Assembly (NCBI GenBank): GCA_964106645.2
Contig: OZ067038.1
Reading direction: 5' to 3' (one strand)
From: Podarcis pityusensis
Lineage: Eukaryota
DNA length: 64,000 nucleotides
The notes beneath the pieces were generated by a model, which did not search any database, was not told where the DNA came from, and was given only the letters and a program-made list of their open reading frames with translations. Positions 778 through 64,000 of the stretch are shown in pieces. The position numbers were made by a program, and so were the translations under genes. Numbering within the stretch: position 1 is the stretch's first letter; the number at the start of each line of letters is the position of its first letter.

Positions 778-3409
778 GTAAGCAAGAAGCAGCTTTGGAT
801 ATTGTTTCAGTTATCCTGATATTTCCCAGGCTTATGATGAGGTTGTGTCTAAAAAAAGAGAGAGGAAAAATTATTAGTATAGAACATGAAGCTGTGTGAG
901 GTTACACGTAGTAAGGTTTGTAGTTGTGTGTGCTGAGATACCTGCTGTCATCAGTGGAGTATAAAAATAATAAATCTGCCAGCTCCTCCCTGTGCCCTAA
1001 TACTACCCGATCACCTTCAATTAGCATTGGAAATTGCCGCCCATTTTTTACTCCTTTACTCCAGTCTTCCATTGGAACCTCCTTAAGAGCAGTAGCTAAG
1101 GTGGCCAGTACAAAAGGCAAAGGAGTGGGTCAGGGTCCCTTTCGTTCCTTGGTATTTTGAGCATAGCTTCTGCCTAACACGTTTTGGGAATTACTTACCT
1201 GTTAGTTGAAGAGAGAGTTCTAAGCTTTGGTTTCATATCATAGCCTGTAGTAATCTGATGACCACAGCGCTTCAAGATCAACCTTGCTGGATACATATTG
1301 CCACCTTGCGTGGTGAAATGCAGATTTCTACCACAAGATCCAAAAGCCATCTTGAAGTGCAAGAATCATGTGAATTGCCTGACTCTACTGTGATAGACAG
1401 AATTAATGGTTGGATGGCCATCTGTCATGGATGATGTGATCCAGCCATCTGAGCATTGCAGATTGGCCATGCAATAGCAGCTCATCTGGGGCTCAGTAAA
1501 TCTCCTGGTTTTGTTGCCTTCCTGGCATTGCAAAAACAAAGCATGGGATTAGGTTTCTCCATCAGCGGCTAGTGTGGTGGGTCAGAGTAGCACTGCCACC
1601 CTCCCAACGTCAGGGTGGCGGTGATGCACTGTTGGAGCCAACTTGCATGCCACAATATGTGACTTGTAGGCTGCATTTGTTTTGGTGGGTCACAAGTTAT
1701 GTAGACCTGAGTAGACTCTGCTGGTCACCTGTAGGTGGTGTCTCTGCAATTTGTTTTGAGATGAGACTAAAGCTTCAGGCTGATTCCAAAGTTGAGTTGA
1801 TCAATGACATAGCACATGTACAAAAGAGCCATTTTTGGTTCAGACTTTTAGAATATTTGGTTTAGAAACTTCCTGATCTTAAAACTGCTGCCTTGGTTTT
1901 TTATTAGCTGTCCGCTGGCTTGTATCTGTTCCAAGTTAAATGTGCCTGATAACCAGGATCTAAGTTACATATTAATACTCTAATATTGCTTCCAGTCCCC
2001 CCCCCCCCCGCCCAGTAGAGTCATTCTGGTCTACCACTACTGGAAGTGATAGCAGGCTGTGACTCAGATGTGGTGTGACGCTTTCACCAGAAGGAACCAG
2101 CGACAGATTTTAGAAGTTGTCACCCTGTCATCTGTGTGGGAGAGATGGACACACTTGGTATATAGGTGTCTTTTTAATATATCTTTTGATTCCTGGGCAG
2201 CTGGCTACATTTTTTATACTAGCTCATCTGGCTCACCAGACCTAACTTTGGAGCCACATCCTAAGTCTATTTAATTAAGTGCATTTGGGTGTATACTTAA
2301 AGTTGCTACTACACAACAGCCAGTGTGTCTTGCAGACATTCCTTCAGAGGCAGTTAATTAGGGATTTTTATCCCAAATTGGCAACATTTTACTTGTTTAC
2401 AGAGGAAGGGAAGCCGTTGTTTTGGTAGCCATGCGGTGTTGTTTTCTCTGCTGGGTAGTACTTTGAACTCACTTTGAAGCTGATGTAAATAATGAGATCC
2501 CTCTGCTTTGCAAACTAGAAGTAATGCACAGTGCTCAGGCCTTATGCCGGCTGCTTCCAGCTTTGCACCCAGGCGCTGGTTTGGGGTTCATATGCATTCA
2601 TACACGTAAACGTGTTTTGTTGGCATGAACCATCTCCTTTGGTTAGCCCATGACCCTGAGGACCAGGTGGCAGGAAGAAGAGTAGCCTGGTTACTATGGC
2701 AATGACTAAATCTGCTTTGGCAGACAAGAGTTGGAATGAAATGCAAACTCCTTATCCTGGTACTAAAGAGTTGAGCCTGGCCTACTGAGCGCTGGGTGGG
2801 CTCAGCTTCTGGGATGGCTGCCTCCCTGTGCTGTCACAAGAACTCTCCTCCTCATGGGAAAGAAAGGAGGTGGTGGCAGGCATGGTAATAATGGTTGCAA
2901 AACAAAGTGGGGATAGGAAGGCCAAGGAGGAGGAATCTCAGGACTTCTGGAAAAGCCTGCTAAAGACCTTGTGCTGCTATCAGGACAGGAAGACTTTGGG
3001 GGTAAAAGTCCTGGGCCCCCATTCAGCAAAATGAGGACAACTCTCAAACATAGCAGACCTGGCTTCTCACATTTTGTACACATTCCTATCTAAAGAGCCC
3101 ACCACCACCAGACCATCAAACCCAGAGTCTCAAATTACTTGACTGCACCATGAACCTGTGGAAGAGCTGAGAGAATGCTAAACCCTCTTTCCTTCTCATG
3201 GAGAGATAACTGCTGGGGGCATGGAATATGCTCCTATGCCTCTCTGGTTACCCACATAGTATGCTTAAAGACCATCTTTGTAGGAATTTGGGTTCCAGCT
3301 CACAGGACTAGAGTCCAACTCTCTGGAATTAGGCCCACAGAGTTTGTAGACTACTCTTTATAACAGGACTAATTTCCTGGTGAGAATGCCCACCTCCTGC
3401 TGCAAATTT

Positions 3410-4146
3410 TGGGACTGCCTCTGAAGACTCCAGTTGGTGCAGAATTCAGTGGCCTGCTGCTAACCGGGCAGGACGGTTCAAGCATATACAGTGGTACCTC
3501 GGGTTAAGAACTTAATTTGTTCAGGAGGTCCGTTCTTAACCTGAAACTGTTCTTAACGTGAGGTACCACTTTAGCCAATGGGGCCTCCCGTTGCTGGCGC
3601 GCGATTTCTGTTCTCATCCCGAGGTAAAGTTCTTAACCCAAGGTACTATTTCTGGGTTAGCAGAGTCTCTAACCTGAAGCATCTGTAACCTGAAGCGCCT
3701 GCAACCCGAGGTACCACTGTAACTCCATTCCTGGCCCGACTGCACTGGCTGCCAATCAGTGTCAGAGCCCAACGCCAAGTGCTGGTTTTTGACCTTTAAG
3801 CAGCTCAGGACCGCCTCTCCCCATAGGAACCAGCTCTGACCTTGTGCTCAGATTCTCAGGCCCTTCTTTGTGTGCCTCCTTTTCTGGGGTGGGGTGTCCT
3901 TCCCAGGGAGGATCACCTGGCTCCAGTATTATATCTCTTTAGGCACCAGCCAAAACCTTTCCTCTATAACCAGGCCTTTGGCCTTTAATTATCTGCAGCT
4001 TTTTAGGGTGTGATGTTTTTAATGTATTTCTCTTTCTTTTTGGTTTCAATGTACAGTATCTATGCGGGGTTTGACTAGTTGCTTGGTTGTAAGTCGCTTT
4101 GGGTTGCGCTGGGCAAGATAAGCGACTGACAAATTAAATAAATAAA
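3410..4146 (+). mobile_element. L2-clade LINE 3' fragment interrupted by a MITE
   Basis: Degenerate LQLVQN..A.LL.G...HITP.LARLHWLPI..RAQ.KVLV motif and (AAAT)n tail; boundaries approximate. Confidence 0.7.
3489..3719. mobile_element. Tc1/mariner-pogo type MITE, 231 bp
   Basis: TIR CAGTGGTACCTCGGGTT / AACCCGAGGTACCACTG, TA duplicated on both sides. Confidence 0.9.
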
Positions 4147-4317
4147 CTAGTCCAAGGAAATTCCATACTACAAATAAAAATATTACAGCAACAGATGTTG
4201 TATGTGACACTCTTACAATATGAGGCAAAATATAAAATACAGTTCATGGCAAGCTGGCATCTCTAAGTGTCGTGATGTTGTTTAAATGGGAGCTCTTTTT
4301 GTGATTTCATCTTACAG

Positions 4318-4412
4318 TACAGCCCTCAGGCTCTGTTCCTCACTATACCACTGAAGTGACAGAAACATCTATTGTTATTACCTGGACACCAGCTCCAAGA
4401 ATTGGGTTTAAG
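4318..4412 (+). CDS. FN1: Fibronectin exon 21-eq, FNIII-6 first half
   Basis: acag|TA...AAG|gtaag; [32 protein letters not shown]. Confidence 0.95.
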
Positions 4413-4753
4413 GTAAGAAAACAGCCACAAATTCCCACCCTACCAGTACTTCAGGTATCACTTAAACAGACATGAAAACCAATCTACCTCAGCAGGGGGA
4501 GAGACCCCTGGTTCAAAAGGGCTTATTACAACTAATGGCTCATGGCTATTTGACAACTTGTAGTAGCAATTGATACACTGGCTGAACGTCATTTGTTTTA
4601 AGCCTGATGTAACAGATTAGAAGTTAAAGGTTCAAAGGTTCAAAGGTTCCTGGAGCAGCTACAAACATTTGTTTATAATTTATAAAATCCACAGTTAAAA
4701 GTGGTTTGAATGTAATCTCCTAAGCAGCTAACAAAGAAGCAAAAATTAACAAG

Positions 4754-4756
<3 letters not shown>

Positions 4757-4822
<66 letters not shown>

Positions 4823-4823
4823 A
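4757..4823. repeat. Compound (TC)n(AC)n microsatellite
   Basis: Directly visible. Confidence 0.95.
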
Positions 4824-5487
4824 AAAGCATCCTGATGAAATGAAGTTGTGAAAATGTTGTCTAGCATATGTTATCCTGCTAATGTGGCCTTGGTGCAAAA
4901 AGGGAACCTTGCTGCAGCGTGCATAAGATTTCATGTTTGTTGTTAATCATTCTTAGTTCTAGTAGTTCTTGTGCCAAAAAAAAAACAAAAAAAGGCCAGG
5001 CTATGTTTCAAGAAAACTCTTAGTTCTGAGCCCAGAATGAACAATTCTACAGCGCATAAAATTGCTTAATAGAAATAATTAAACATTTCCAAACTTGGTA
5101 TTTCATTTGGTTGCAGATAGAGTTGTTGTGGGGTTTTTTGATAGAGTGGTTAAGAAGCCAAGGGAGAAGGGGCAGCAGAGGCAAGATGCTAGGAATGGAA
5201 AGTCAGCAGAGAAACCAGAAGCTGTTAGAGCCACAGAACTCTTTCCCTTTTCCTCCCTGCTTTAGTCTCTGCTCTCTACAATACTGAGGACTAGATATCT
5301 ACTTTTCTGAAATGAAATCCTGAAGTTCTCAGAAAGCTCGGGTTCCACCATGCATATATCTTTGCAGAATTCAACTCCTAATAGTTTTGATCATCCACAT
5401 TAAGCTATACTGGTGTTCTTCACAGGAGTACATACTACAGCAGCCATTGTTAGCTGTGAATAATTCTTCATTCTTTTCCTTCTGCAG

Positions 5488-5656
5488 CTGGGTGTGCGAC
5501 CAAGCCAAGGTGGAGAAGCTCCAAGGGAGGTCATCTCTGAGTCTGGGAGCATTGTCATCTCGGGTCTGACTCCTGGTGTGCATTACGACTACACCATCAC
5601 AGTACTCATGGATGGTCAAGAGAGGATCACACCCATCACCAAGACAATAGTTACAC
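5488..5656 (+). CDS. FN1: Fibronectin exon 22-eq, FNIII-6 second half
   Basis: gcag|CTG...ACA C|gtatg; [56 protein letters not shown]. Confidence 0.95.
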
Positions 5657-6149
5657 GTATGACACATTTTAACTATCACATAATGAACACTGCTTTTTTA
5701 GGCCAAAGATCCCAAAGCCATTATCCCCCACAGAAGTCTGTGGAATTATTTTGGAGTGGTTTCTTTGTAAAATAAATCGGGCAGATTTGAGCCAGTATAT
5801 GTGGAAGAGGGGGTAGCACAGGTGTATTCCTACCACAGATAAGACTTGTTTCCTGCTAACCTGGGCCTGGTACATCCTGACACCTCCAGCAGACCAGCCC
5901 ATAAGGATCAGACTGCCATGAGGTGCTGCTGGGCTTTGGTAGCTCACAACATGTCATGGCTAGCTTAGAGAGCAGGGTTCAGTCCATGACCCAGAGAAAA
6001 TAGTGTAAGTTGGAAGAATAGCTCTTGGAAGAACCTTTTGATGCTCAGGTTTTATATTTCCAGGTGGCTTTGGTGGTGCAAAATGCCTCCCATCAGCTTC
6101 AGCTGCTGGCCCCACCACCCCTACCCTATATGGACAGGGATATATTTGT

Positions 6150-6715
6150 GTTGTCTCTGCTCTGGTAACCTCTAGGTTAGATTACTGTAATGGGGCTGCC
6201 TTTGAAGATGTTTCAAAAACTGCAAATGTTGGAGAATTCTGCAACCAGGTTGCTCATGATGGTCTGAGCACAGAACATCAATCCTGGCCTGTGTGCAGTG
6301 GCTGCCAGATGGTTTACTGGCCCAATTCAAAATGCTGGTTTTTACCTTTAAAGCCATATGCAGTTTAGGACCCCAATGCTTCAAGGACTGTCTGTCCCCA
6401 TATAATCTAATCTGCGCCCTGCATTCCAAGGGAAGTGCAGAGGGGGGCAGTGCGAGAATAGGCTTTCTCTGTGGTGGCCCCTTGTTTATGAAATGATCTT
6501 CCCAGGGAAGATCTCTTTTTAGGCGCCGGGCAAAAACATTCTTGTTTATCCATACCTTTGGATCTTAACTTCCTGCTTCTCTTTTAGTGTGGTGGGGTGG
6601 AGTTTGCATCTATTCTATTTATACATGTTATATGTTTGTAGTTTGGGCTGTTTTAGCACTGTTTTTAATGTTTTTTGTAAGTCACATTGAGTTTCATTTT
6701 TGAAAAAAGCAACTA
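6150..6715 (+). mobile_element. L2-clade LINE 3' fragment
   Basis: VTSRLDYCN..LPLK...KLQ and QWLP...AQFKMLVFTFKA..LGP..KDCL remnants; boundaries approximate. Confidence 0.7.
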
Positions 6716-6780
6716 ATACTGAAAACTCTTTCTGTTGCCTATCTAGTGAAATCTTAAAACAATGATTTTACTACTTATAG

Positions 6781-6867
6781 CTCTGTCACCACCAACCAAC
6801 TTGGAACTTGATTCCAACCCCAAAACTGGAATCCTCACTGTCTCGTGGGAAAGAAGCACATCTCCAG
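6781..6867 (+). CDS. FN1: Fibronectin exon 23-eq, FNIII-7 first half
   Basis: atag|CT...CCA G|gtatt; [29 protein letters not shown]. Confidence 0.95.
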
Positions 6868-7540
6868 GTATTTATATTGTGCATGGCTAGGAACTGCCCT
6901 TTTGACTGTGCAGCACTCTAGATCCTCAGCAATTCTCCAAGATGAGCTGTCATTTTGGGCATTGTTAACCAGATACTGGATACATCTGTTATAGTGCCAT
7001 TTCTAGTACAGAGGGAAAGGAGGGCACTCCTTTCTAGGGAGCATTTTGAAAAAGAATAGCACCATTGGAATCTGCCCACTAAGAAAACAAGGAGGGTAAG
7101 AATATGGTAACTCTTCTACAACGTATTGCATTTCTTTGTGAATGCCCTCCCTCAAAGCTATCAAACACCTTTGAAAGGTTGTCTTTCAAACATTTGTGTT
7201 AAAAATAATGTATTTAGGAGAAAAATGGAAAATTAACATTGAAACACACCATAGATCTGTGTCTCAGTATGTTCATGAAGCACATCTCATTGGATTATAT
7301 TGAAAGTATATATTCCTGCAATTTCTATAAGTCTATAACAAATGGAAACATCAGAATGCTTCATACTTGCCCCACATTCTGTGAAAACAATTATGTGTCA
7401 CAGGCAATTGGAGGGGACCTTCTTGCTGTCAGATTTCCAGGTTTTAAGACCATTTCACATTTTTAAATAGCTGTGCTTCTGTCTAGTTTTAAGGAAGTAG
7501 AGTATAAGTGCCAACTAAGCCCTTTACTTTTGTACTTTAG

Positions 7541-7732
7541 ATGTAACTGGATACAGAATTACTACTGTCCCTACAAATGGACAGCAAGGTTTCACTCTGG
7601 AGGAAGAAGTTGATGCTGAACAGACATCCTGCATCTTTGAAAATCTGAGTCCCGGAGTGGAATACAATGTCAGTGTTTACACAGTCAAAGATGACCAGGA
7701 GAGCTCGCCCATCTTTGAAACCATCACACAAG
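7541..7732 (+). CDS. FN1: Fibronectin exon 24-eq, FNIII-7 second half
   Basis: ttag|AT...CAA G|gtaaa; [64 protein letters not shown] (free Cys of III-7 kept). Confidence 0.95.
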
Positions 7733-10450
7733 GTAAAATTTAAAAACTGAGCAGCAGATTTGACAAATTTCACAGGGAGCCATCCTATAAATTTCTGTAC
7801 TTATGAAAGCTGTACCTGAACATCTTTCGGTGAAGATTTTTCATTGGTTGTGTGCATGTTTATTCATAAATAAATCCTGTTCAGTTCAGTGCAATTTACT
7901 TCTAATTAGGATCACAGCCCTGGACACCAAGACAAACATACTTGCTCATTCCATATGGTTTTTATACTATTGTCTTATTTTGCATAGGTATACAACAGTG
8001 GTGAGCAGATTGGCCTTGGATTCGCTGCCTCTGACTCAGGGGAAATGGATCACTAAACATTTTGGGTTTATTCATATGTTACATTTTGTGTGGGTTTCCA
8101 TGTTGCTGTATCAAATCTAGACAAACCAGATCAAGTACCAGTTAATAATGGTCAGAGGTGTGAAGAATATTTTAGAAAATAAGGTTCTTATTTGTTCAGG
8201 TGACATTGCCCATTGAAAATCAACAGTGCTTGATGTTTAGAAAGATTCTGGTGGAGGACCAATGTTCTCTGCTGCTGGATAAGCTCACTCAAGAGTCAAG
8301 TGTACCGTCTCTGTATTGAGCTGTTGCCATGCTGATCCCAGATATCATGAAATACAAAATGAGCAAGTTGATCCAGTTGATCACTAGTAAAATATTAAGC
8401 CTTCATATGTGTTTACTCAGATGTTAGCCCTACTTTATTAACAGTGAGACTTGCTCACAGGTAAATGTGCATATGATTGCAGCTATAGACCAAGAAAAAG
8501 TATCTCTTTGCTCTTTATTTGTGCTCAGAAGTATGTGTTATGACTGAAAATGTACACCCTGCCCTTCTTCTGTTGTAGAAGATGATGGTCTGGGATGTCT
8601 CAGTCTAGCCTTATGTTTGTAGTGCTGTAAAACCCCAAACCTGTCATTATGGGATTTTGCCTTATCCCCACCCCCCACCCCAATGGCTCCCAGCTCCTGT
8701 GTTTCACAGATGCTTGCCATTAACACTGCTTGGCATTTCTGTGCTCTTGTTGAGTCTCTCTTTGCTCCTATGGGCAACTAACACCCTGGTTTGAGTTAAT
8801 TCAACAATCAGGTCCTTAACCCAATGCCACTTTCTAACACAAAGAAGCACTGGGGGAAAACTTTTTGTATGTCTTTAGTGCTTTCTTTACAGGTGATATG
8901 GTAAGCGTATCCCACAAAGATAAGTGGTTATTTGGTAGAAAATTGATACTTTCTTTTTCAGTTCTGCTCAGTGGTTTTCCATAACAGAATGGAAAAAGGT
9001 TCTGAAATTATTAAACCAATGTTTTGCACCAGATGTAGACCAACTTTGAAAGATTCCTTATCAATTTAAGAATTGTATACTCCTCCCACCAAAGAAAACA
9101 TAAAACACACATTTGCCCTGAAACAGGCTGTGTCCCTTTCCCCATCCTTCCCATCCCTCTATAGTATAGTAGCACATAACATATTTTACGTAAGCGCCTC
9201 AAAACTGCTTCCATTCAAAGACAAAGTGAGGTAGGACTCTATTCCTAGAGTGATCTATCAACCAACTTTGCTACAGCTGTTGCTCATAAGTGTTACTTCG
9301 CCTTAGAAATTACCTGCTGAATAATCACCAGGCTGTGTAATATATACTATATGTAGGGCTGGATGTACAAAATCAATATTTTGCTTCAGGATGATTAGCC
9401 CATGAAAACAATGTCAGGTAAAGGAACATGTCTCATTCATCACTTAGACTAGAATCCCTTGCCATTTTTAACTTCACAAATGACAATTCTGTAAGGATGA
9501 CATGTTTTATGTTTCAGACTGCTGTACTGTACACAGTTACTTGGTGGGATTAACTCCAATTAGGATTATGTTTCAAGGCTATGATCTTTCTAAAAGTTTG
9601 CACTCAGAAAAGAATGGCTTTGTTAGATACTGAAGTTGATAGGAGTGAACGTCTGTAGTGCAGGTCAAAAAAGCAGGCACAAAAGAAGCAATATTAGTCC
9701 CGTTACGATAATAATAATTTATTATTTATACCCCGCCCTTCAGGCTGGGTTTCCCCAGCCACACTAATGAATCCATTAAAAGTGTCTGAGCCACTTGATC
9801 ACCATCCTTAGCCTCTCTTTTTTTTAAAGTGTCTTCTCGGTTGTGTACTGGTTGGCAACTTCCCCCACCCATAAGTCTACAGCCTTCTGGTCTGTGACGT
9901 GACGCATAGAAACTGTTTCCTCCCCACTTTATCCTAATTGAAAGTAGAATATTTAACCAAGGCAATTGCTTTCGAGTAATACTGCAACTGGCAAAACAAT
10001 CTGAACCTGATTATCTGTGTGGAACATGTATAACCCAGGCAAGCTGTCATTAACTACTAATGATTTGTACAAGGAAAACTTGGTACGGGCAAGCATATGT
10101 GTTAGTTGGAGAAGCAAACTTTTAAGACTGTGGGGCTCAAGCGTTAGTTGATAGGGTCTCATACATTCCTGCCAATTTGATTCCCTCCGCCCCCCCGAGA
10201 TGGGCTCCTTTGTTGTTTTACATATGCTGGAGCAGGTGCCATTTTGCTCCATCCTAAAAACATATTTGCTGGCAGAGTGTTTCATGAGAATTGGCTGCAA
10301 ATCCTGCAGAACATCTCTAATGACATTCAGAAGAGATGTTCTGCAGGTATTGTAAGAGGGTTTAGCTATCTAACCCATTGCTGTATGTTGTAAATGGTGG
10401 ACTTGCTTTTCATAGGGAAATATCGCATATCACCACAATTACTTCGCTAG

Positions 10451-10569
10451 TTCTTCACTTTTAATTCACTGCTGAATTCACTGATGATCACTGCTTTTTC
10501 TTTCTCTTCCTTCTTGTTGTATTTTGCCTCCGTTTGTCTTTGGCTCCCTGTTTTGCTCTGTAACACAAT
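10451..10569 (+). promoter_or_regulatory. Long AG-exclusion zone / polypyrimidine tract of the EDB 3' splice site
   Basis: No AG dinucleotide for about 119 nt upstream of the acceptor; branch-like CTGA motifs at about 10472-10486. Confidence 0.7.
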
Positions 10570-10571
10570 AG

Positions 10572-10844
10572 AGGTGCCCCACCTCACTGACTTAAGCTTT
10601 GTCGACGTAACTGATACAAGCATCGGCCTGAGGTGGACCCCACTAAATGCCTCCACCATTATTGGCTACCGCATCACAGTAGCTGCAGCAGGAGAAAGTG
10701 CCCCCATTTCTGAAGATTTTGTGGACTCTTCAGAGGGACACTATACGGTCACAGGCTTGGAGCCAGGCATTGATTATGAGATCAGCGTAATCACACTCAT
10801 TAATGGCGGAGAGAGTGCCCCTGCTACGCTGACTCAGCAAACTG
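10572..10844 (+). CDS. FN1: Fibronectin alternatively spliced extra domain B (EDB/EIIIB), exon 25-eq
   Basis: 273-nt phase 1-1 exon; [26 protein letters not shown]...[19 protein letters not shown]; weak donor G|gtgatt. Confidence 0.96.
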
Positions 10845-11454
10845 GTGATTGTTGAAGACCTCCTGTGTTGAGAGGACTGTTTCATGCTGTCACTAGCTGC
10901 TTGGATGACTGGTTTGCTCAGTGGAGAAATGGGCCTCTTGCTTTGTTTAGGGAGAGGTGGCCAGGGGACATTTTTGGAAGTTCAATGGGAACAGATATAC
11001 AGTATTATACACATAATTTCCTTTTAATATTTCCACCAATTTGAGGTTGAATCTTGCATCTCAATAGCAGGTTGAAGCATCTTGCCAAATTCTCAGTGGA
11101 TGATAATTTATTTGGCTTTTGCAATTCTATCTCCTAATGTTTTTGTGGATAGAAAACATTTCTCTAACATTTCTTCTCACAGCTTTATTATCATTTCACA
11201 GTGCATATCTGAGCTGGGCTTGAACCCACATCTCAGAAGTTTCAGAACCTATGTGATGTATCCACATTGGCTTTCCTAGCCACAATGGAGATAAATGGAA
11301 TAATCCAAATACAAAAGCAATATCTTGGAGTCCATTGTCCTAATCCTCACTTAGTGGCCCAAGTGTTCAAGTGATTCCCCCAAAATGGTCTGGGGAAGAA
11401 GGCATCCTCCAATCACGCTAGTGACAGGCATGGCAGTCTTTGAAACCTCTGTAG

Positions 11455-11953
11455 TGCATGTACAGAAAATGACCTGGGAGTTTGTTTTGCATGGAAAGAC
11501 TAGTATGTTCACCTTAGCTGGGTAAGGCTTTATAACCTTTTCCTATGTAAGTAGTTGTAGAGTCCTAGAGACTTCACAGCTATTGTTCATCCTCCCCTCT
11601 GTATGCATGTTAGTGTTATGGAAGTGGTGCCTTTTCCCGCCTCTGAGCTGCTGTGGAGCACATTGGGCCTCTCTGATTTGAGATGGATCTCAAGATCCAT
11701 AGGCAAAAGACAACAATACAGGAACTCACTGCTTGTCTTTTTTCTTCTTTAAAAAAGTAATATTATGGAATACATTTGGAATCCATAACGGTTTTGCTGA
11801 GAGGTTAAAGGTGCTTTACATCAGCTTTAACTGTATAATGAAAGATTGAAAGATTACTGCAGCTTACTTTCGTGGAATGAAACATAGTTTAGTAGTACAT
11901 TTGCATGGGTTTGATTTTGTAATGGATTCCTCCCCCCCTTTTTTTTTTGCATG
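11455..11953 (+). promoter_or_regulatory. RBFOX-type TGCATG intronic splicing enhancer cluster downstream of EDB
   Basis: TGCATG at 11455, 11488, 11604, 11902 and 11948; this hexamer array is the known EIIIB intronic control region. Confidence 0.85.
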
Positions 11954-12037
11954 GGATTGTTTGTATATTTTTGAAACACTATTGAATCGAATTCTGGTGC
12001 TTCTAAAATTACTGAAAATATTGTCCTTTAACCTCAG

Positions 12038-12220
12038 CTGTCCCTCCTCCCACTGATCTGCGTTTTACCAATGTGGGCCATGACACTATAAGAGTAACTT
12101 GGACTCCACCAACCTCCATTGAACTGACCAACTTCCTCGTTCGTTTCTCACCTGTGAAGAAAGAGGAGGATGTTGCAGAGCTGTCTATCTCACCATCTGA
12201 CAATGCAGTGGTTTTAACAA
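12038..12220 (+). CDS. FN1: Fibronectin exon 26-eq, FNIII-8 first half
   Basis: tcag|CT...ACA A|gtaag; [61 protein letters not shown]. Confidence 0.96.
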
Positions 12221-13198
12221 GTAAGAGACTGCTTCATTGATACGTTTTATCCAGTCATCAAACTGATGTGATTTGATATTGGAATTGGTAGACTTTGGGG
12301 GAGTGTGTGGGGAGATGATTGGCTAGACGTCTACTTTAGACTCTTGCTGTCACTCTTTATATGCATTTTCTATGGCTATTTTTCATTTGTTTTCCCCTCA
12401 ATTCACCAAATCTCATTTTGATGGCCTCTATTTCATTTTTCTCTTTGTAGTTACTACTTTAAACTCTATGCAAAAAGTCTTATGAGGAAATCATGTACTG
12501 GAAGAAACGTGTTGTATTAAATTATAAATACACAGTCGGGTAGCCCTGAAAAATTATGTTTCTGTTTGTTTGGAATTTATCCATCCCACAATAGAATATG
12601 AGCTCTGTCACCAGTACCTAAGTCCTGGTAGGCCAACAGTACATGACACATCTGACCCAGCCTAAACTCTCTGAGATGCTCTTAGGTTAAACATTTTCTG
12701 CTGGCAGTGTTTCTCATCTCTCCCAGACAGTGAAAATGAATGTCAGAATTAAAGAGTTGCTGCCATTTGTACTTTAGTTCTTATGTGCATTTCTGACAAG
12801 TACACAATTTGACAAGGCCTTGGTAGAAAAAATTAAAGAGTTTTGTTGATGGAGGTAGATATGGAAACAGTACAAGCTTCAGAGCTTTTCCAGTAAAGAA
12901 CATGGAAATTCTAGCTGGAAATGCTTTGTGAATAAATGACAATAGGCAAAACTGTCAGAGAGTGAGAAACTTGTTTTGTAGGCTGGAAAGATCCATTGGG
13001 TTGGGGGGGACCAGCAATTTTTTCAGCGGATAATGCTGCATGCTCAGGTAATGTAACATTTAGAACTTTGCTAAACAACATAGCTGGAAATGACCATTTT
13101 TGTTTAGCAAAGGAGCTCTGCTGGGTAAAAAGCTGAGATTTGCAATTGTTTCTAGAGGAATTTAAATATCCTAAATCATTGCTGTTTTAACTCTTCAG

Positions 13199-13288
13199 AT
13201 CTTCTCCCTGGCACTGTGTATTTGATCAGGGTTTACAGTGTATATGAACAACGTGAGAGTAAACCTCTGAGCGGAGAGCAGAAAACAG
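13199..13288 (+). CDS. FN1: Fibronectin exon 27-eq, FNIII-8 second half
   Basis: tcag|AT...ACA G|gtctg; [30 protein letters not shown]. Confidence 0.94.
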
Positions 13289-13738
13289 GTCTGTGGAATG
13301 ACAAATATTGAAAATGTCTTCACTTTCTTTCTACTAGTTTTATTTCAAATGAGATTTGTGTGGTAGCAATTTATTAAGATTGTTCTGCTATTTCAGTTGT
13401 TCAAAAATATTAAGGATTTTGAAAATTTTTGTGTAGATTTTGCTTTACAAATTGGTTTTAGCAAGCCCATTTTAGAAAGAACTATCATGCCATGATGGCT
13501 CTGTTGAAGTTGGTCCAATACAATTTCATAACTTCAGGACTCTACATTCATAGCCCTATCCATGTTGTTATTCCTTCCCCTTTCAGTGGAGGAAGGGTTT
13601 GGTGTTTGAACAACCTATTATGGCCCACATCTTTAAGAGCTGTGGTTGATGGGACTTTGGTTTGTCTGAATGTTTCCTATCTATTTTAATATATATCCAA
13701 TGTATATGCATGCTTTTTCTACAAAAAAACGACATTGA

Positions 13739-14065
<327 letters not shown>

Positions 14066-15326
14066 TAGACAAGGAAAATAAAATACAGCTTTTAAGTTCT
14101 TGAGACCAGGTCACGGAGTTAATTGAAATGGAACTTAGATATGGTCAATTCCTCTAACAGCTCAGGGGAAGAAATTGAGTCAAGAAATTTCACTACGGAT
14201 TGCAAGTGAGGCATTGACCATATAACAGTAAGAACCTACAGGTTTACTGGATGGTTTTGAATGGCAGCTCAAGAGTTATAGAAATCATTCTCAGTTTTAT
14301 TCTGCTTCTGCTACTCATGGAGTTGTGGAAGGGACTGCAGCCAACTGCTAGGAACCCAGTCAAGGCCTCTCTTCATCCTTTCTGAGATTTCCTCAGGCAC
14401 ATTGTCAACCCTATCAGTGTGGCCTCCAGAACTAGAAAGTTTTGGCAGGTGTTAAGAAAAGACTACAAAACAGAACTAAACAATATGCAGCATATGTACA
14501 CGATGCTGAAAGCAGCAGCTTCATGTCCCTTGCTCCTCCCAGTAACATGGAGGCAAAATACGTGGCATTGTATTGAGTTTCCCAATCCCTTCATGTGTAG
14601 GTAGGGACACACGCAGACAGTGATTTTTCAAGTTGCTGCATTTTTGAGGAAAAAAAAACAGCATTTCTGGAAAAAGTAGAAGAGAGTAAGCAGGACTTTG
14701 AGCAGAGCCAGCTCTACAATTGGCACACTGAGGTGGCAGCCTCAGGCAGCAAAAACCTTCAAGGCGGCAGCCCCACCAGGACCCCTCTGTCGCTGGGGCA
14801 GAAGCAGTGCCAGTATCGGCACCAATTTCAGATGGAATTGTGGGAGATCATGCAGAGCATGAAAAGATATCTTATGATTTTGCCGAGATCTTGCTTGAAA
14901 TTGACGCCAATGCCGGGGTCACTTCTCTGCCAGCAGCAGAGGTGGCAGGGCAGGTGGAGAAGTGGTGGCAGCAGTGGCAGGGCATTTGCCTCAAGCGGTG
15001 AAATAGGACATGCCGCCCCCGACTTTTAGTGACTTTCAGTGTTTTATATTGTCTGCTTTGGGCCATAGGTTTTCAAAGTGCTGAATATCTCAAGTCCAGT
15101 ACCCAATTCCATGGATTCTTGGTACAATCGCAGAATCAAAACCCAATTGAAGATTCAGATATGGGTTTAAATGGCAGCTTTCTAGTGGGCTTGCAGGGTG
15201 GTGCTTGGCTAGCTACTTTCCTTCAGAATTATTTCCGCTCCAATAAACTGCAAGTGCTAGTGATGCATCTCAGAGGGGGAATACAATGATGAAACATTGC
15301 CTGCCTTGGAACCAGTGCAGAATATA

Positions 15327-15496
15327 CCGTATTTTTTGCACCATAACACTCACTTTTTTCCTCCTAGAAAGTAAGGGGAAATGTCTGTGCGTGTTATGGA
15401 GGGAATGCCTACGGGTGGCATGCCTACGGATTTTCCTCCTCTAAAAACTACGTGCGTGTTATGGTCGGGTGCATGTTATAGAGCGAAAAATACGGG
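15327..15496. mobile_element. Short TA-flanked Tc1/mariner-type MITE
   Basis: TIR CCGTATTTTT / AAAAATACGG; termini shared with 58167-58786. Confidence 0.8.
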
Positions 15497-16466: not shown

Positions 16467-16611
16467 CAGGAGTGCCAAATTGGATAAAATAATTGATCAC
16501 TTGATGTGGTGCACACACACCATTTGAATGGCAATGCCCATCAACTTCAGAGGGGCAGCCCCCTCAAATATTTTAGGGGGGCCCAAGACCCCTTGGCTCC
16601 TAGGTGTTGGC

Positions 16612-16746
16612 AGGATAGCTCATTTGGTAGAGCATGAGACTCTTGATCTCAGGGTGGTGGGTTTGGGCAAAATAATCCTGCATTGCAGGGGGTTGGACTA
16701 GATGAACCTCATGGTCCCTTCCAACCCCGCATTCCATGATTCTATG
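16612..16746 (+). mobile_element. tRNA-Lys-derived SINE with CR1-like tail
   Basis: Head GGATAGCTCAtTTGGTAGAGCATGAGACTCTTgATCTCAGGGT resembles tRNA-Lys(CTT) with the T-arm deleted; tail GGTCCCTTCCAAC...ATTCTATG. Confidence 0.75.
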
Positions 16747-18080: not shown

Positions 18081-18147
18081 AATTTGCCATAACATTTTTG
18101 TGTGTGAAGAACACTCGGAGAAGGAGTAATGTATATATATTCCATTA

Positions 18148-18378
18148 CAGTGGTACCTCGGGTTAAGTACTTAATTTGTTCTGGAGGTTCATTCTTAACT
18201 TGAAACTGTTCTTAACCTGATGCACCACTTTAGCTAATGGGGCCTCCTGCTGCCGCCGCGCGATTTCTGTTCTCATCCTGAAGCAAAGTTCTTAACCTGA
18301 AGCACTATTTCTGGGTTAGCGGAGTCTGCAACCTGAAGTGTATGTAACCTGAAGCGTATGTAACCCGAGGTACCACTG
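18148..18378. mobile_element. Second copy of the 231-bp TA-flanked MITE
   Basis: Same TIRs, TA TSD and internal sequence as 3489-3719. Confidence 0.9.
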
Positions 18379-18720
18379 TATTTAATTCCCCTTCTCTGTT
18401 AAAATCCCAAGACCTAGCTTGCAGATTAAAATATTAACACTTTCAAATAGCGCTTTCTGCTGATTTCCCCCTCTCCCACTTTCTTCACCCCAACTTTCTT
18501 ATCTACAGTTTTTGAATGCTTGTTCCCCAAGGCCACATCATGGAGAAACAAGGATCTGGTGTTATCACTGCAGGTTCCATACGAAATTCAGAATATTAAT
18601 TTAGTGTCCTTGAGAAATGTCTTCTGAGTTACTTTAGGCCTTGGAGGACCAACATGGCCACACTTCTGCTGAACACAAGGTGGTCAGTCTTCTCTAAGAT
18701 CTGTCACAGAAGCCAATGAG

Positions 18721-32434: not shown

Positions 32435-32599
32435 TTCCTGGAACATCAAACCAACCAACAGATGACTCATGTTATGATACATTCACTGGCTCCTTCTACT
32501 CTGTTGGGGAGGAATGGGAAAGAATGTCTGAAACTGGATTTAAACTCTGGTGCCAATGTTTAGGCCTTGGCAGTGGACACTTCAGATGTGACTCTTCAA
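32435..32599 (+). CDS. FN1: Fibronectin exon 42-eq, FNI-10
   Basis: [50 protein letters not shown]. Confidence 0.96.
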
Positions 32600-32644
32600 G
32601 TGAGTAGCTTCTTGAATTCATTTGGCTCCATTTCTAAAATTTGA

Positions 32645-33120
32645 GGCAATAAACCCCAAATACCTACACCTCGCCCCCCCTCAGAAGGGTGGTGAGGAAT
32701 CCCCAGCACAGAACTATACTACAACGCCAACCAAGTGCACCACATAATCCCATGCATTCCAGAAGACGAAACAAAACAATGGGTACACCTGGAGAGAGAC
32801 GTAATCGAAAATACCCCCACCGTGGCACACCCATTCCTCCCAAACATATCCCCACAACGCTAAACAGGTTCACACAGACAATGCTTTAAGCATGGAAGGA
32901 AGAAGCAGGTAAACTGTCCCCAACCCCAGCCCCACTAAACCCCCTGGCTCACCACTCACTATTCCACCACGCAGCACAAAACCTCCAGATAAAAACCTGG
33001 CAAGCCAAAGGCTTATACCGCCTAGCAGGCTTCTACAAAAACAACAAACCCACATTGACACAAGAAATACAAGGCAAACTAGGGGACACCCAAATGCCCT
33101 GGTTAACACACCACCATTTT
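32645..33120 (+). mobile_element. Degenerate L1 ORF2 fragment
   Basis: Frame reads EGW*GIPSTELYYNANQV...KQWVHLERD, resembling L1 GG.G.P...LYY.A.Q...WV..E. Confidence 0.55.
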
Positions 33121-33290
33121 CATTGTGCTGTGATGTTAGACAACCCAGAAAAGGGGATAGCACACATTTGCGTAGCTGGTTGTACAATGGACAGTATAAA
33201 AGAATATGTTCTACTGGGTCCAGCACATTCAAAAAACATCTGCAATGCCTATCGTTTCAGGAGATGTTTAAATATCTGCCCTTAACAAAA
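33120..33290 (-). mobile_element. Non-LTR retrotransposon ORF2 C-terminal Cys/His fragment (clade uncertain)
   Basis: GRYLNI..DRHCRC...DPVEHILLYCPLYNQLR; same motif as 55600-56048. Confidence 0.6.
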
Positions 33291-33620
33291 GCTGAGGAAA
33301 AAACTTTCAGTTGGCCCTGCGTTGGACTGGAATTATTAACTGTGAAATATAAGTGACCCTGCTATTTGTTGGATTTAAACCATAAAACATAATCCAGCTA
33401 GAGCTGTCATTAATTCTGATTTACACCAGTTTTTTCCCAATTAAAGTTCAGTATTTTGTTTGCTTCAGGACTTTACCAGCTGACTACCCTGATGCCAAAC
33501 ACTTACATTCTTACATTTCCCCCCCAGATAAAATAAGACACCTAATTGAACATTGCTTCTTCTGTGTGTGCTTCACATTTACAGATACTGACAGCCAAAT
33601 CAACAACTAAATAAATCCTG

Positions 33621-33746
33621 TGTATCTGAAGAAGTGTGCTTGCACACGAAAGCTCATACCAAGAACTAACTTAGTTGGTCTTAAAGGTGCTACTGGAAGG
33701 ATTTTTTTTATTTTGACTATGGCAGACCAACACGGCTACCTATCTG
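33621..33746 (+). mobile_element. Solo Penelope-like element terminal repeat fragment with 13-bp target-site duplication
   Basis: Flanked by TAAATAAATCCTG at 33608-33620 and 33747-33759; begins with a minimal hammerhead motif typical of PLE repeats. Confidence 0.75.
33622..33659 (+). ncRNA. Minimal type I hammerhead ribozyme motif
   Basis: Stem I GTAT/ATAC; core CTGAAGA; stem II GTGTGC-TT-GCACAC; GAAA; palindromic AGCT in place of stem III; predicted cleavage after C33655. Confidence 0.75.
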
Positions 33747-34342
33747 TAAATAAATCCTGATAACCTGAAGACAATTTGATAAAACCTAAACACTATGTCT
33801 TGATCATATTGCAAGTTATAGCCCTCATTCCCAGCCTTGTCATATGTATCCTAGCAGCATTAGAGCTTTCTAAAATAATCTTAAAAGCCAATTCACTTTC
33901 TAAATATGTTCATAATATGTTCCAGTGGTGAAGCACTGCTCAACCCTTAGCAAGATCAACTGCTTCTAGCTCACCCTGGGATAAGTGATGGTTTAAGCAG
34001 CCTCACGTAGCAATCACAGTAATGAGGAGACCAACAGCAGGTGGATGTGGCTGAAACACCCTAGAATTATTTTTTGGATAGGCGGGGACTGTTACCTGGG
34101 AACAATAACAGGAATTATTTTTTATGGATACTAAACATGTCAGGCCCCTTTTTACTTCCAAGCTGTGCCTAGCTGCCAGTTGAGTGGATAGGAGCTCTTT
34201 TTCGTTGAAATATTGTTCTTTGTAAAGAGCTCCTTCTACAAACCTGAGGCTTTTGTCTATGGGACCCTAAGCCCCAGAATACATCAAGTGACCAACACAC
34301 TGTCAAACAGGGCTCAGTGTGGATTCAGCATCACTTTATTGA

Positions 34343-34516
<174 letters not shown>

Positions 34517-48087: not shown

Positions 48088-48390
48088 TGTTGTAAATAAA
48101 AATATGCCCTTTTCCCTTATGGGGTATCCAAGAGCCCATATAGAGTCCTTACATAGGTTCCTTATCGGTAGGAGAAAATAACAGAGGCCAACCAGAGAAT
48201 ATTGAGAAGCAAAGCAGCTAGGAAGCTTTGCAACAGATCAATAAAGATCAAGCTTACTAGCTGCTTTGCTTCTCAATATTCTCTGGTTGGCCTCTGTTAT
48301 TTTCTCCTACCAATAGGGAACCTATGTAAGGACTCTATATGGGCTCTTGGATACCCCATAAGGGAAAAGGGCATATTTTTATTTACAACA
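48088..48390. repeat. Long inverted repeat: 141-bp arms, 21-nt spacer, 3 mismatches
   Basis: 48088-48228 is the reverse complement of 48250-48390 except at 48162, 48166 and 48222. Confidence 0.95.
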
Positions 48391-57485: not shown

Positions 57486-58166
57486 CTGGGGGAGAAAAGT
57501 AGCATTTTGCACCAGAAAGGTCACCTACCAGAGTCAGGGATCCCAGAATTTAGCTTCTTAAGTGTACAGCTCAATCCCAGGTGCATTTACTTTTGAGTAA
57601 GCCCCAATGCCTTCAGTGCTCCTTACTCCCTTGGGACTTCTGGCAGGTTTCTTCTTAACTGCAGCCCAAGTTACCCAGGGGGCAAGCAAGCTCAGTGTAG
57701 CAACTCAACATTTTCAACATCACAGTATTGATGTAGGTGGTTCGCTGCAGCATGAATAACCAAGTCGCCAAACCTGTGTGGTACTTGCCAAGAACCACAA
57801 GTTAACAAAATTGCTTAACTAGCAGACGAATCCCTTCTCCATGGAGTTCTTCTGTCTGTTGCCAGGAGCCACAATGTGGGGGAAATGTCTAACCAGCCCA
57901 GGGCCATTTCCAACAGACAGGGCACTGCTGCCCCACAATGTCATACTATGAACAGGGAAAACAATAATTCTACACAGGGCAGTAAGATCAAAGGCATGGA
58001 TGCAACCCTGATATGAAAACCCAGGCTGTATCTATACAGATATTAAAAACACTATTATCAAAAGCTATAGTGGGGAAACGCTCCCAAGGCAATCGGCCAT
58101 TGACTTTGGATTCTGCTCTACAACGCCATCTGGTGTCACATTTTTATAACACATTTTAATGTTATA

Positions 58167-58786
58167 CCGTATTTTTCGCTCCATAAGACACACTTTTTTC
58201 CTCTTAAAAACTAAGGGGAAATGTCTGTGTGTCTTATGGAGCGAATGTGTGGTCCCTGGGACTGGGGGGGAGAAACGGACAGGCTGCGCGCAGATGCCCT
58301 GCGCTCCTGAGCAGCTCTGGGGTAGCCCACGAAGCCTCCGTAGGGCAGCAGGATGAAGGCTCCCCACTGCCCTGAGGAGGCTTCGTGGGCTTCCCCAGAA
58401 GCCAGAACAGCTAGAGGAAGCGCTGCAGTGCTCCCTCTAGCTGTTTTAGCTTCTGCCTTAGTGGCGCAAAGCCTCCGCTGCCCTGTGGAGGCTTTGTGCG
58501 GCTATCCCTGGCTTTTGCGGGAGGTGGGGGAAGGGACAAAGCGCGGCTCTATCCCTTCCCCCACCTCCCAGAAAAGCCCCCAAGAGCCGCGCTCCCTTTA
58601 AAGAGCTGCCCTTCTCCCTCCTCGGGGAAAAGCCTGCAAGCGCCGCACACACACTCCACACAGCTCGTGAAAGGGAGTGCTGAACAGAGCCGGGGATGCA
58701 GACAGGCTCTGCTCCCTTTAAATAATATGTTTTTCTTGAATTCCCCCTCTAAAAACTAGGTGCGCCTTATGGAGCGAAAAATACGG
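58167..58786. mobile_element. 620-bp TA-flanked non-autonomous DNA transposon with GC-rich palindromic core
   Basis: TIR CCGTATTTTTCGCTCCATAAG / CTTATGGAGCGAAAAATACGG, TA on both sides. Confidence 0.88.
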
Positions 58787-61190: not shown

Positions 61191-62216
61191 CTGCAATTAA
61201 AAGGAAGCCAGGAAAACCATTACCATTCCTCTGTACATCACAGACTGGGAGCTTAAGGTCCTACCTTCAAAAACACGCAACGCGCTGATCCATCCAGGGT
61301 CTGCCAGAACCCTCAGGGGAGGTGCCGGAACCAAGTTGAAAAAAAGCCCTGGTCCTCCGGATGTTGCCAGACTGCAAATTCCACCATTCCTGACCAGTGG
61401 CCATAGTGGCTGGGGTCATGGGTACTAGAGTCCAATGAAGTCTGAAGGCCCTCAGGCTCCCTAACCTTGCTATACAACATCTCAGACACACCAAATCTAG
61501 TCATCTCACATACAACTCATTTCCTCTCGCACACAGGGTTTGCAGGATTTATAGCATGTGTTCTACAGCCAGCCTTCCAACAACTCAACAGATTGTATTA
61601 CAACCACTGGGTTGTATCCGATGCATCATATAGGTGCAGTTCCACTATGATGGGACTTCTCTTTACTTCCCTCCCCTCCATGCTCCCTCCCCCCCAAAAT
61701 CTGCTGCAGAGGGTCCTTCAACCCCCTGGAGTCAACTTTGATGGGGGGGGGGGACTGGAGGGGACAGGACAGGAGCCAAAGCCACACTGTGTGCATGGAA
61801 GTCCATTGAGTCAGCAAAGCTTCATCGTTGGGTAAGGTGGATAATGCAGCGGTTTCTGCACTGGCTTCTCAAAGTAAATTCATCATTTATGAAAATTTCT
61901 CTGGCAGAAAGAGAACCTTTAGAAAAATTCAGCTAATTACTACATACAAAATAGATTTTAAGGACCCTTTTTGTCCAAGGAACCATTTCCAATTCCGTTT
62001 CTGCTTGTCCAGGTCACAGAAAAGCTGGCCAGAAATGCAGCATTGCAAGACAAACATTGGGATACCCAGCGGTGGTGGGTTTGCACACATGCATCCCTTT
62101 CCACACCCCTCCCTGAAGTCTGTTTTCAAGGAAAAGATGAAGCAGTGACAGCCCCAAAGTTGCTGGCACAAAGTTGCAAGGCACAATCCATTCAAACCAA
62201 TGTTCCTTTGACTTAC

Positions 62217-62305
62217 CTATGTCAATCTGTTCAACTGCTTCTGGGATAGTTACGCCTGGAGATGAGACTGTCTTGACAAAGGGGTAGAGGTTGCAAACTA
62301 CAACT
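62217..62305 (-). CDS. ATIC: ATIC exon 5 (IMP cyclohydrolase domain)
   Basis: [29 protein letters not shown]. Confidence 0.95.
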
Positions 62306-64000
62306 CTGGAAGGAAGAAGATTGAATGGCTTTAAATTGTTCATTTCAGACAGGCAACTGCAGAGCTATGGGGCTGATCCAGCCCACGGCACCTTGAAGCC
62401 AGCCCACATCTCCCCAAATTGGCCACAGCCGCCCACTTTAAAAGTGCGGGACATCCTGTTCATGCAAGTGGGAGCCCCGCTCTGCTAAGCCAAACTGCTG
62501 TGTGATATGTGTGCGTGTGATTCATAGGGGACGGCGGCTTAAGGAAGGGCTACCCCTCCCCTCCACACATGATCCCTGAGAATCAGACTCCTTCCCTGCA
62601 CCCACCCATGCCAAGCTTTCTTGTGGAAAGGGGGAACTGTCAACAGGAAGGAAGGAATGAAAAGAGGGGATAAGAGGGTGGCAGAAACAAACAAGGGAGC
62701 AACTACAAGCTCTGGCTCTGCTGACTTGTGGCTCTGCTTCCACCGCCTGCAACACTGGTATGCAGTACCCCAGACATATCCATCTGAGGGAAAATGTGGT
62801 CCTTGACTCCAGCAAGGATGGCAGCTATAATGCAGCAACATCTGTAGGGGGTGCAGTTCCCCATCCCTGCCCTAATGCAAAGCAATCATTTATCGGATCC
62901 CTGCTGAAGCAAAACAGAAACAAGACCCTGACATGGGGCATTCAGGACACCCACCCCCCAGCAGCTGCTCTTCCAAAGGGCAGGTTCAAAAGGCAGGACG
63001 GGAGCAGCCTTTGCAACACTACCTGGCTCAATCTGGCAATCCAGAGTCAGGTCATCACCTTAAAGTTGTTTTCAGGTAGCCCACCAAATAAGAGGAACAT
63101 GCATTTCATCCATACGGAACCCAGTTGAAAGGAAGCAGTGGGCAAACAGCAGATGATCTACACTGCTGAGATTGTGACAGAATGAGAACTATGGGAACAA
63201 TCCACCCACTAGTTCCAACAGGAGATGGGGGAAAGAGCATTACACATATGCTTAATTCTCCTCTGAAATCAGTAAGAGGGACCAAATATTTTGGTTGGAT
63301 TGTGCCCATATTGCCCTTTATTAGGTTAAAAAACCCAGTATCATTAAGGTGGCCCAGAAATATAAAACACTAAAAGTCATCTGTCCAGGTCACTGGGTGC
63401 TGATGGTACAGAATCAGGTGACCAGTTGCCAGACAGTGACCCACGTTACGTTTCCACTGTGCTTTGCACAAAACTGGCCAGTTAAGAATCACTTTTATTT
63501 AACTTTGATGCTGAACTTTCTGATTTCCATTTAATGAATAACTTCTGTTTGGCATCCAAAGTCACACTTTGCACCACACCCACATCAAGTTGGCCAATCG
63601 AATGAAGCTGAGGAATTATTATGCTGCCTCTAAGTTAAGGGATGGGGCAAGAGGTGCAAAACTGAAAGGGGGCGGGGGGGGGCGTGCACAGACCAAGTCT
63701 TCAGCCCCAGGGTCCTCAGCCTCTGGCCCTGAATTTATGCACTCTTACGTATGAAGTTGACTTACATGTTGAAATCTAAACAGTACTGTGTAAATCTCAA
63801 AAGGGTATGTTTGCCAGTGTTTCAAAATTAAAACAATGAATAGAAGTATAGAGCCTTTAAGTCTCTTACACTATTATTTTTTCTCCCTTTTCCTTCGCTC
63901 CAAAAATGATGACAATGACACCATCTCACAAAATTTATGCATCTGATCTATTTTTTACTCTAACACACAGATAAAGGCTTGTTTATGGAGCAGAAGCCCT

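Follow-up and report, generated by a model that had tools for sequence, protein, structure and literature searches.

What is a hammerhead ribozyme motif doing in an intron of the fibronectin gene FN1, and does it cut the RNA in which it is transcribed? The question is raised by a short insert in a 64,000-nt stretch of lizard DNA (the window, whose numbering is used throughout), which an earlier note had read as a young Penelope-like element that could nick FN1 pre-mRNA in trans. We consider it very probable that the insert is a recent solo insertion of a high-copy repeat, likely a truncated Penelope-like end placed by target-primed reverse transcription, and that the hammerhead is a predicted inactive passenger in the FN1 intron.

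The insert and its empty site in FN1

Pfam fn1 and fn3 domains identified the host gene as FN1, on the + strand. The intron that holds the insert runs from 32600 to 34367 with GT..AG ends, the exons joined across it stay in frame, and the insert is oriented sense to the gene (Table 1). We take the domain of the upstream exon to be FnI-10 and that of the downstream exon to be FnI-11. The insert is bounded by an exact 13-nt direct repeat with 126 nt between the copies, and an exact repeat of at least 13 nt in that geometry was obtained at 2 of 300 random spots of the window. Both the repeat-bounded insert and its sense position between exons for type I domains are thus as first described.

Table 1. 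Positions of the insert, its parts and its surroundings in the window
Feature	Position	Strand	Basis
Upstream FN1 exon, fibronectin type I domain	32435..32599	+	Pfam
Pre-insertion host intron sequence with predicted pairing to 33620-33638	33574..33592	+	Folding; present at the relatives' empty site
Target-site duplication, 5' copy	33608..33620	+	Exact repeat; single copy at the empty site
Insert: single stub from a high-copy repeat family, likely the pseudo-LTR end of a Penelope-like element	33621..33746	+	Contig depth; family likeness over 33620-33749
Minimal type I hammerhead	33622..33659	+	Descriptor and numbering; comparison with Fig. S3 of PMC4209133
Predicted scissile bond, after C17	33655..33656	+	Hammerhead numbering
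Stub, 3' part, with a T-run and letters diagnostic of the subfamily (A at 33683 among them)	33660..33749	+	Family contigs
Target-site duplication, 3' copy	33747..33759	+	Exact repeat
Downstream FN1 exon, fibronectin type I domain	34368..34492	+	Pfam

The duplicated 13-mer is AT-rich (10 of its 13 letters are A or T) and contains an AATAAA hexamer, found at 33610-33615 in the 5' copy and again at 33749 in the 3' copy. Family and target have letters in common at both junctions: one nucleotide at the 5' end, where G33620, the last letter of the 5' copy, is also the family letter and the loose ends of the family contigs start before 33620, and three at the 3' end, where the TAA that opens the 3' copy also occurs in the family sequence as a 3-nt microhomology. 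The family contigs align up to 33749 and then diverge from the window. Just past the 3' copy, the host sequence carries a CTGAAGA (33765-33771) whose distance from the 13-mer equals that of the hammerhead box from the 5' copy, which is either chance or a hint of homology-aided joining. A third copy of a 14-mer lies at 7867 (E 0.089).

Eight of the 23 listed public runs were examined as contigs, representing six organism labels (organism D not among them) from six studies. None of the listed runs is on record as RNA, which says nothing about expression. An empty site with one copy of the 13-mer was found in all eight, the two closest holders included, and because this site has a single copy, the 13-nt repeat is supported as a true target-site duplication. 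In six runs (X3, X4, X9, X11, X15 and X17), a single contig jumps over 139 nt, and 13 of its letters fit on either side. The two closest runs, X1 and X2, come under one species label (organism A) with shares of words of 0.81 and 0.80; their joint connects 33610 with 33750, the short side counting 31 letters and the letters in between being unspecified. Just right of the site, this one contig accounts for the whole depth in these two runs (24.8 and 26.7), so that none is left over for a filled-allele junction. The flanks of the window show two listed differences from X1, fewer than the four between X1 and X2, so the haplotype of the window falls within the variation of organism A. The filled allele, absent from all eight examined runs, is known from the assembly of the window alone; the insert is likely polymorphic in the species of organism A or confined to a very close lineage. 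Since the site is empty in all eight runs, under six organism labels, the insertion is supported as young, and the check for an empty site in relatives came out in favour of the age first suggested. The statement that the motif is transcribed in every FN1 pre-mRNA has to be narrowed: it holds for the alleles that carry the insert and fails otherwise, both runs of the closest organism being without it.

Several other features were observed around the site. The two runs of organism A, but not organism B, show an extra contig depth of about 16-21 over 33580-33602 and a break in the contigs at 33609. Organisms C, F and G have a 12-base addition at 33878/33879 that is missing from the window and from organisms A and B, a small lineage marker. 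An older repeat occupies 32680-33400 of the same intron, occurs in the relatives too and reaches a depth of up to several hundred times that of the flank in runs X9 and X11. It had no Pfam match; one of its minus-strand frames contains a C..C / H....C pattern, which we take to be like the C-terminal motif of LINE ORF2 proteins.

The hammerhead motif and its repeat family

Both strands of the 64 kb were searched with a descriptor of the minimal hammerhead, with 400 dinucleotide shuffles as control. The descriptor matched a single site in the window, on either strand, that of Table 1, and the shuffles gave three matches with 4-bp stems (one with a 5-bp stem II). Hammerhead numbering assigns every part of the motif: a 4-bp stem I (33622-33625 with 33656-33659), the CUGAAGA box (33626-33632) followed by an extra A (33633), a 5-bp stem II (33634-33638 with 33643-33647) that carries a CUUG loop in the energy model, GAAA (33648-33651), G15.2 and C16.2 (33652-33653), U16.1 (33654) and C17 (33655), with a loopless palindromic AGCU in the position of stem III. 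The catalytic boxes CUGANGA, GAAA and U-H at 16.1/17 are therefore all present (as CUGAAGA, GAAA, U33654 and C33655), as are the extra nucleotide between 9 and 10.1 (A33633), the G10.1-C11.1 pair (G33634-C33647), the palindromic 15.2-16.2 with no stable stem III, and a short stem I next to a longer stem II. The complete core with its 4-bp stem I and self-complementary AGCU, and the predicted cut after C33655, stand as the earlier note had them; its placement of the motif in the first 39 nt with a 6-bp stem II needs correction, as the motif spans insert bases 2-39 and stem II has 5 bp with a CUUG loop. The sixth pair, which would close a 2-nt loop, has a probability of 0 in the energy model. 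A C-G pair can close UU in CUUG-type loops.

The bare core pattern is not above chance in the window (8 matches, 5.4 expected), and the hammerhead fold is no stabler than that of shuffles (z of -0.74 for the 40-mer and -1.14 for the 152-mer). The Infernal-type check that had been proposed was negative: the hammerhead covariance models of Rfam gave no match at gathering score in the window, nor at E up to 10 within 33400-33900. Two weak Rfam snoRNA matches (E 1.5 and 5.7) were put down to chance.

Cervera and de la Pena listed four family features for the minimal hammerheads of metazoan Penelope elements (PMC4209133), and all four are present here, in agreement with the class that had been assigned, that of the minimal type I hammerheads known from Penelope-like elements. 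What is shared with the hammerheads in the published alignment comprises the type I topology, the short stem I and longer stem II, the extra base after A9, the G10.1-C11.1 pair, the loopless 15.2-16.2 palindrome and an occurrence mostly as dispersed single copies (PMC4209133). With the motif of the turtle Chrysemys picta bellii, 29 of 34 positions outside loop II are equal when compared by eye, and the five differences are a compensatory pair in each of stems I and II plus C17 here for U17 there; loop II has 4 nt here and 7 in the turtle motif (PMC4209133). This covariation amounts to two compensatory pairs in one pairwise comparison by eye, set beside a large family here, and no covariation was found within the family itself. 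The source does not mark the turtle motif as linked to a Penelope ORF, and its alignment shows no lizard family of this type, whereas the present case is a dated single insertion with a verified empty site (PMC4209133).

The insert belongs to a very abundant family. Summed contig depth over it is about 1e6, against 9-29 for the single-copy flanks, and the ratio of insert depth to flank is 45,000-147,000 in four runs, a figure that is not a copy number since the contigs overlap; divided by 31 for overlapping words, it gives a floor of about 1,400-4,800 in these four runs. The DNA-type runs each contain 3,474-13,446 family contigs, counts that for one set include the second repeat of the intron. 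The family thus has at least thousands of copies. The A at 33683 accounts for about one third of the family depth in organism A and for 1% or less in organisms B and C, so this copy is in a lineage-specific subfamily that expanded recently in the lineage of organism A. Within the hammerhead, the only position with family variants at 5% or more is 33655 (C>T, i.e., C17 to U, at 14-30%), where the variant is a permitted letter, and the catalytic core of the insert equals the family majority at every position. The hammerhead and the 3' part do not differ significantly in conservation (1 of 38 and 10 of 90 places variable, p 0.17).

In many cases, a family contig starts at 33620-33622, next to AT-rich flanks that are unrelated, and ends at 33749; about 49-53 loose ends fall at 33622 in each DNA-type run, with an agreement of 0.36-0.40. 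Past 33749, many family contigs share a common short sequence, from which it follows that copying started inside the template. Joints between family copies are frequent: opposite-strand joints occur in all four runs of one set and are absent from this copy, joints lead from 33749 or 33745 back to 33622-33624, and among the joints listed with letters in between, whose orientation is not stated, nearly all return to 33619-33626. A 30-40-nt 3' tail was looked for as well: joints leave at 33711-33713 and at 33745-33749, about 36 nt apart, where alignments also break at a variable T-run. The final 35 nt or so of the stub, within its 3' part, may be such a Penelope "tail".

All six DNA-type runs contain family contigs (14-53 per run) that run past 33620 on the 5' side, into a pyrimidine-rich stretch which they have in common and which ends in CA. 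Together with G33620, it makes an acceptor-like CAG directly ahead of the first base of the insert, and it is missing from this copy. Judged from its letters, this stretch ahead of stem I may be a candidate splice acceptor or just the U-rich 5' flank that is part of the published minimal-hammerhead consensus; the intron of the Drosophila virilis Penelope is described as ending at the 5' edge of helix I (both PMC4209133). An acceptor-like stretch that ends at the common 5' boundary may bear on how these elements define their ends.

The insert itself is non-coding, with no ORF of at least 90 amino acids over it. Of 85+ window frames, 29 were scanned against Pfam; none showed a reverse transcriptase or GIY-YIG domain, and the output comprised only fibronectin domains, minor overlapping matches and a weak MGS-like match. 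Pattern scans for homologues returned no locus in viral contigs, none and one in metagenome contigs, and seven in prokaryote genomes. These eight loci were rejected as homologues, the best being a 21-nt match inside a long bacterial-type ORF that we took as chance. The features of the motif, the joints among family copies and the target site together strongly suggest a Penelope origin of the family. A literature search by title and abstract start found no publication on this lizard family; Repbase and Dfam were outside the search, and the family may well be catalogued. As to novelty, it is one more example of a known element type, a stub with a minimal hammerhead.

Predicted behaviour in FN1 pre-mRNA

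Folding was predicted at equilibrium, without proteins. In these predictions, at 25-37 °C, the open-core hammerhead fold costs 1.5 kcal/mol for the motif alone, 1.7-1.8 kcal/mol in the insert and 4.6-11.1 kcal/mol with host flanks, depending on the context: 7.7-8.6 kcal/mol with 80 nt of upstream flank, 10-11 kcal/mol for nascent 33540-33660 and 4.6 kcal/mol in 450 nt. Random flanks were equally bad in 4 of 143 cases. The upstream intron stretch of Table 1 is predicted to pair with the 5' half of the motif with a probability of 0.7-1.0, hiding stem I and the CUGAAGA box, and the probability of stem I with flanks is 0.004 or less. A descent of this upstream flank from an old antisense copy of the element was tested and found no support, 15 of 637 windows scoring as high and 26 of 6,375 reaching the hybrid energy; the predicted pairing with the insert looks like chance.

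Stem III formed in trans would be a 4-bp AGCU duplex of -2.5 kcal/mol, and in the best predicted dimer of two 38-mers, stems I and II pair between the strands and stem III stays unformed. There is no second copy of the insert or of the hammerhead within the 64-kb window, beyond which FN1 continues 5' and might hold another copy. In vitro, related hammerheads were described as uncleaved when monomeric and as cleaving at a low level when they were linked as dimers (PMC4209133), and the anole Penelope hammerhead is presented as cleaving with the assistance of the element protein and not without it, with no RNA-seq ends at its cut site among the data described (PMC11167929). Cleavage of FN1 pre-mRNA is unlikely on several counts: stem III is lacking, the window holds no partner copy, the core is predicted to be paired with the upstream intron, and the relatives stay uncleaved as monomers or when protein is missing. 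The weak activity that the earlier note expected agrees with these predictions and with the reports on relatives; its proposal that FN1 pre-mRNA is nicked in trans to a meaningful degree does not. With letters that all agree with the family majority, the core would likely be competent once it is folded and has a partner. Such partners may be available in trans, since family sequence is plentiful (247 and 155 contigs) in two runs of a relative that we guess to be RNA, and remodelling of the RNA by protein could counter the predicted silence. The same two runs show the FN1 intron with the empty site at a depth of 5-10.

Origin of the insert and rival readings

We propose the following course of events for the insertion. 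A Penelope reverse transcriptase-endonuclease, encoded elsewhere, would have nicked the AT-rich site and primed on element RNA at a TAA inside it, about 94 nt beyond the cut site; that RNA was presumably uncleaved, because the copy keeps both sides of the cut site. Copying would then have run back through the entire hammerhead and halted at the common 5' boundary of the family, just ahead of stem I, and repair would have duplicated 13 nt. The youth of the copy and the retention of the motif in the source elements, and not any use in FN1, would explain why the ribozyme is intact. In the pre-mRNA, it would find neither a stem III nor a linked partner, the upstream intron, made earlier, is predicted to capture its 5' half, and the intron would be spliced out and degraded as usual.

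The arrangement can be compared with that of endonuclease-containing (EN+) Penelope elements, for which tandem and inverted joints of insertions (PMC8557442) and target-site duplications of 8-10 bp, in rotifer examples (PMC3846280), are described. Partial-tandem and inverted joints among family copies were found here, and so was a target-site duplication at an AT-rich empty site. The present copy is like the solo or inverted pseudo-LTR insertions of these elements (PMC3846280, PMC8557442) in that a short insert of pseudo-LTR size is flanked by a duplication and its family shows tandem or inverted joints; it differs by its one arm without inverted partner and by a duplication of 13 bp instead of 8-10 bp. 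A closer comparison is offered by PAc, a Poseidon element of Anolis carolinensis (PMC11167929), in which reverse transcription is reported to start 111-118 nt into an ORF beginning at stem II; in our insert, 116 nt separate the start of stem II from the 3' end. As the sequences differ, this is a likeness of layout rather than homology. Both are lizard Penelope-like elements with a minimal hammerhead, AT-rich targets, an internal start of reverse transcription and an uncleaved RNA template, unprocessed RNA being given as the main substrate of the anole element, which fits the uncleaved template proposed here (PMC11167929). Compared by eye, PAc has other stems, a CG-type palindrome and an ATG at stem II; it is autonomous where the present copy is an ORF-less stub.

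Readings other than a truncated Penelope-like end were weighed against the same evidence. The family might be a stand-alone, non-autonomous, retrozyme-like monomer with a short transcript of its own, of which this copy would be full-length, and we regard this as possible, if doubtful. The many contigs that start at 33620-33622 in unrelated AT-rich flanks and end at 33749 would suit such a unit, as would the joints that lead back to 33622-33624 and a reptile retrozyme consensus given as 176 bp on average with many monomers (10.64898/2026.07.22.740005); other contigs, however, carry more family sequence on both sides. Animal non-LTR retrozymes share with our insert that they are non-coding, bear hammerheads, are related to Penelope, are often monomeric and often intronic (42-44% of copies in Xenopus), but active retrozymes are defined there by two or more tandem units, each with a hammerhead, and a single unit is present here (10.64898/2026.07.22.740005). 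Since the same source derives retrozymes from Penelope pseudo-LTRs, this reading and that of a truncated end share both the enzyme and the outcome. Domestication as a regulatory intronic hammerhead, as in RECK, we consider practically negligible. The motif is intronic, sense and intact in its core, and domesticated intronic hammerheads of type I are known from amniotes (PMC6155905, PMC10761166), but those of the RECK type are described as conserved across taxa and active as single motifs, while this one has no stem III and no Rfam match and is absent from close relatives. The orthologous site, empty in all the runs examined, refutes such a domestication, barring a selective sweep of the filled allele in one population.

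An effect on FN1 could be imagined along two lines. The hammerhead might cut the pre-mRNA in trans, through AGCU with family RNA or with the help of Penelope protein, so that the output of the filled allele falls, which we hold to be improbable. The intact core with its majority letters speaks for it, as do the abundance of the family in the two runs guessed to be RNA and the protein-assisted cleavage of the anole hammerhead in vitro (PMC11167929); the weakness of the AGCU duplex, a predicted dimer without stem III, a core predicted to be hidden by the upstream intron, uncleaved monomers and low cleavage of linked dimers (PMC4209133) and the anole site without RNA-seq ends (PMC11167929) all speak against it. 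Introns are, moreover, short-lived. Dye and colleagues reportedly observed in 2006 that splicing proceeds across a cut intron, which also counts against an effect of trans cutting. We would give similarly little credence to the more general idea that sense intronic copies of the family are latent cut sites, which plentiful Penelope protein or family RNA would activate in trans, nicking host pre-mRNA allele by allele. Alternatively, the insertion might act, if at all, through signals of RNA processing, as an intronic poly(A) site or a cryptic acceptor, and this appears very improbable to us. Both AATAAA hexamers are there, GT-rich letters follow the first only in the filled allele, and a T-run precedes a CAG at 33723-33725. 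Against this, the empty site already has one AATAAA and the same intron another at 32648, no consensus GT[AG]AG donor occurs in 33590-33790, the pyrimidine run is 8 nt from the AG, and the copy is without the acceptor-like stretch found ahead of stem I in longer members.

Seen as a truncated Penelope-like end, the locus is of low importance as it stands, one of thousands of stubs of a known type in a gene that shows no sign of using it. Its verified empty site makes the insert a clean presence/absence marker. If it is polymorphic, the pair of filled and empty FN1 alleles would suit the question whether minimal hammerheads of Penelope cut host RNA in vivo, though a positive result is hardly to be expected from this copy, given its predicted pairing with the upstream intron.

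Finally, the window contains other features of interest. A near-perfect palindrome of 303 nt (48088-48390, 92% self-match) resembles a MITE or a fold-back insertion, and 58163-58578 is a cluster of adjacent short inverted repeats of 60-85 nt each, part of which matches 15323-15407 at 88%. The weak match to an MGS-like domain on the minus strand (62014-62364, E 0.006, below the cut-off) would presumably fit ATIC, which we take to lie tail to tail with FN1 in vertebrates. At 16609-16683, a tRNA-like head reaches the Rfam gathering score (29.6 bits) and is followed by non-tRNA sequence, likely a tRNA-derived SINE, and two copies of a 235-nt interspersed repeat, 88% alike, lie at 3487-3721 and 18146-18380.
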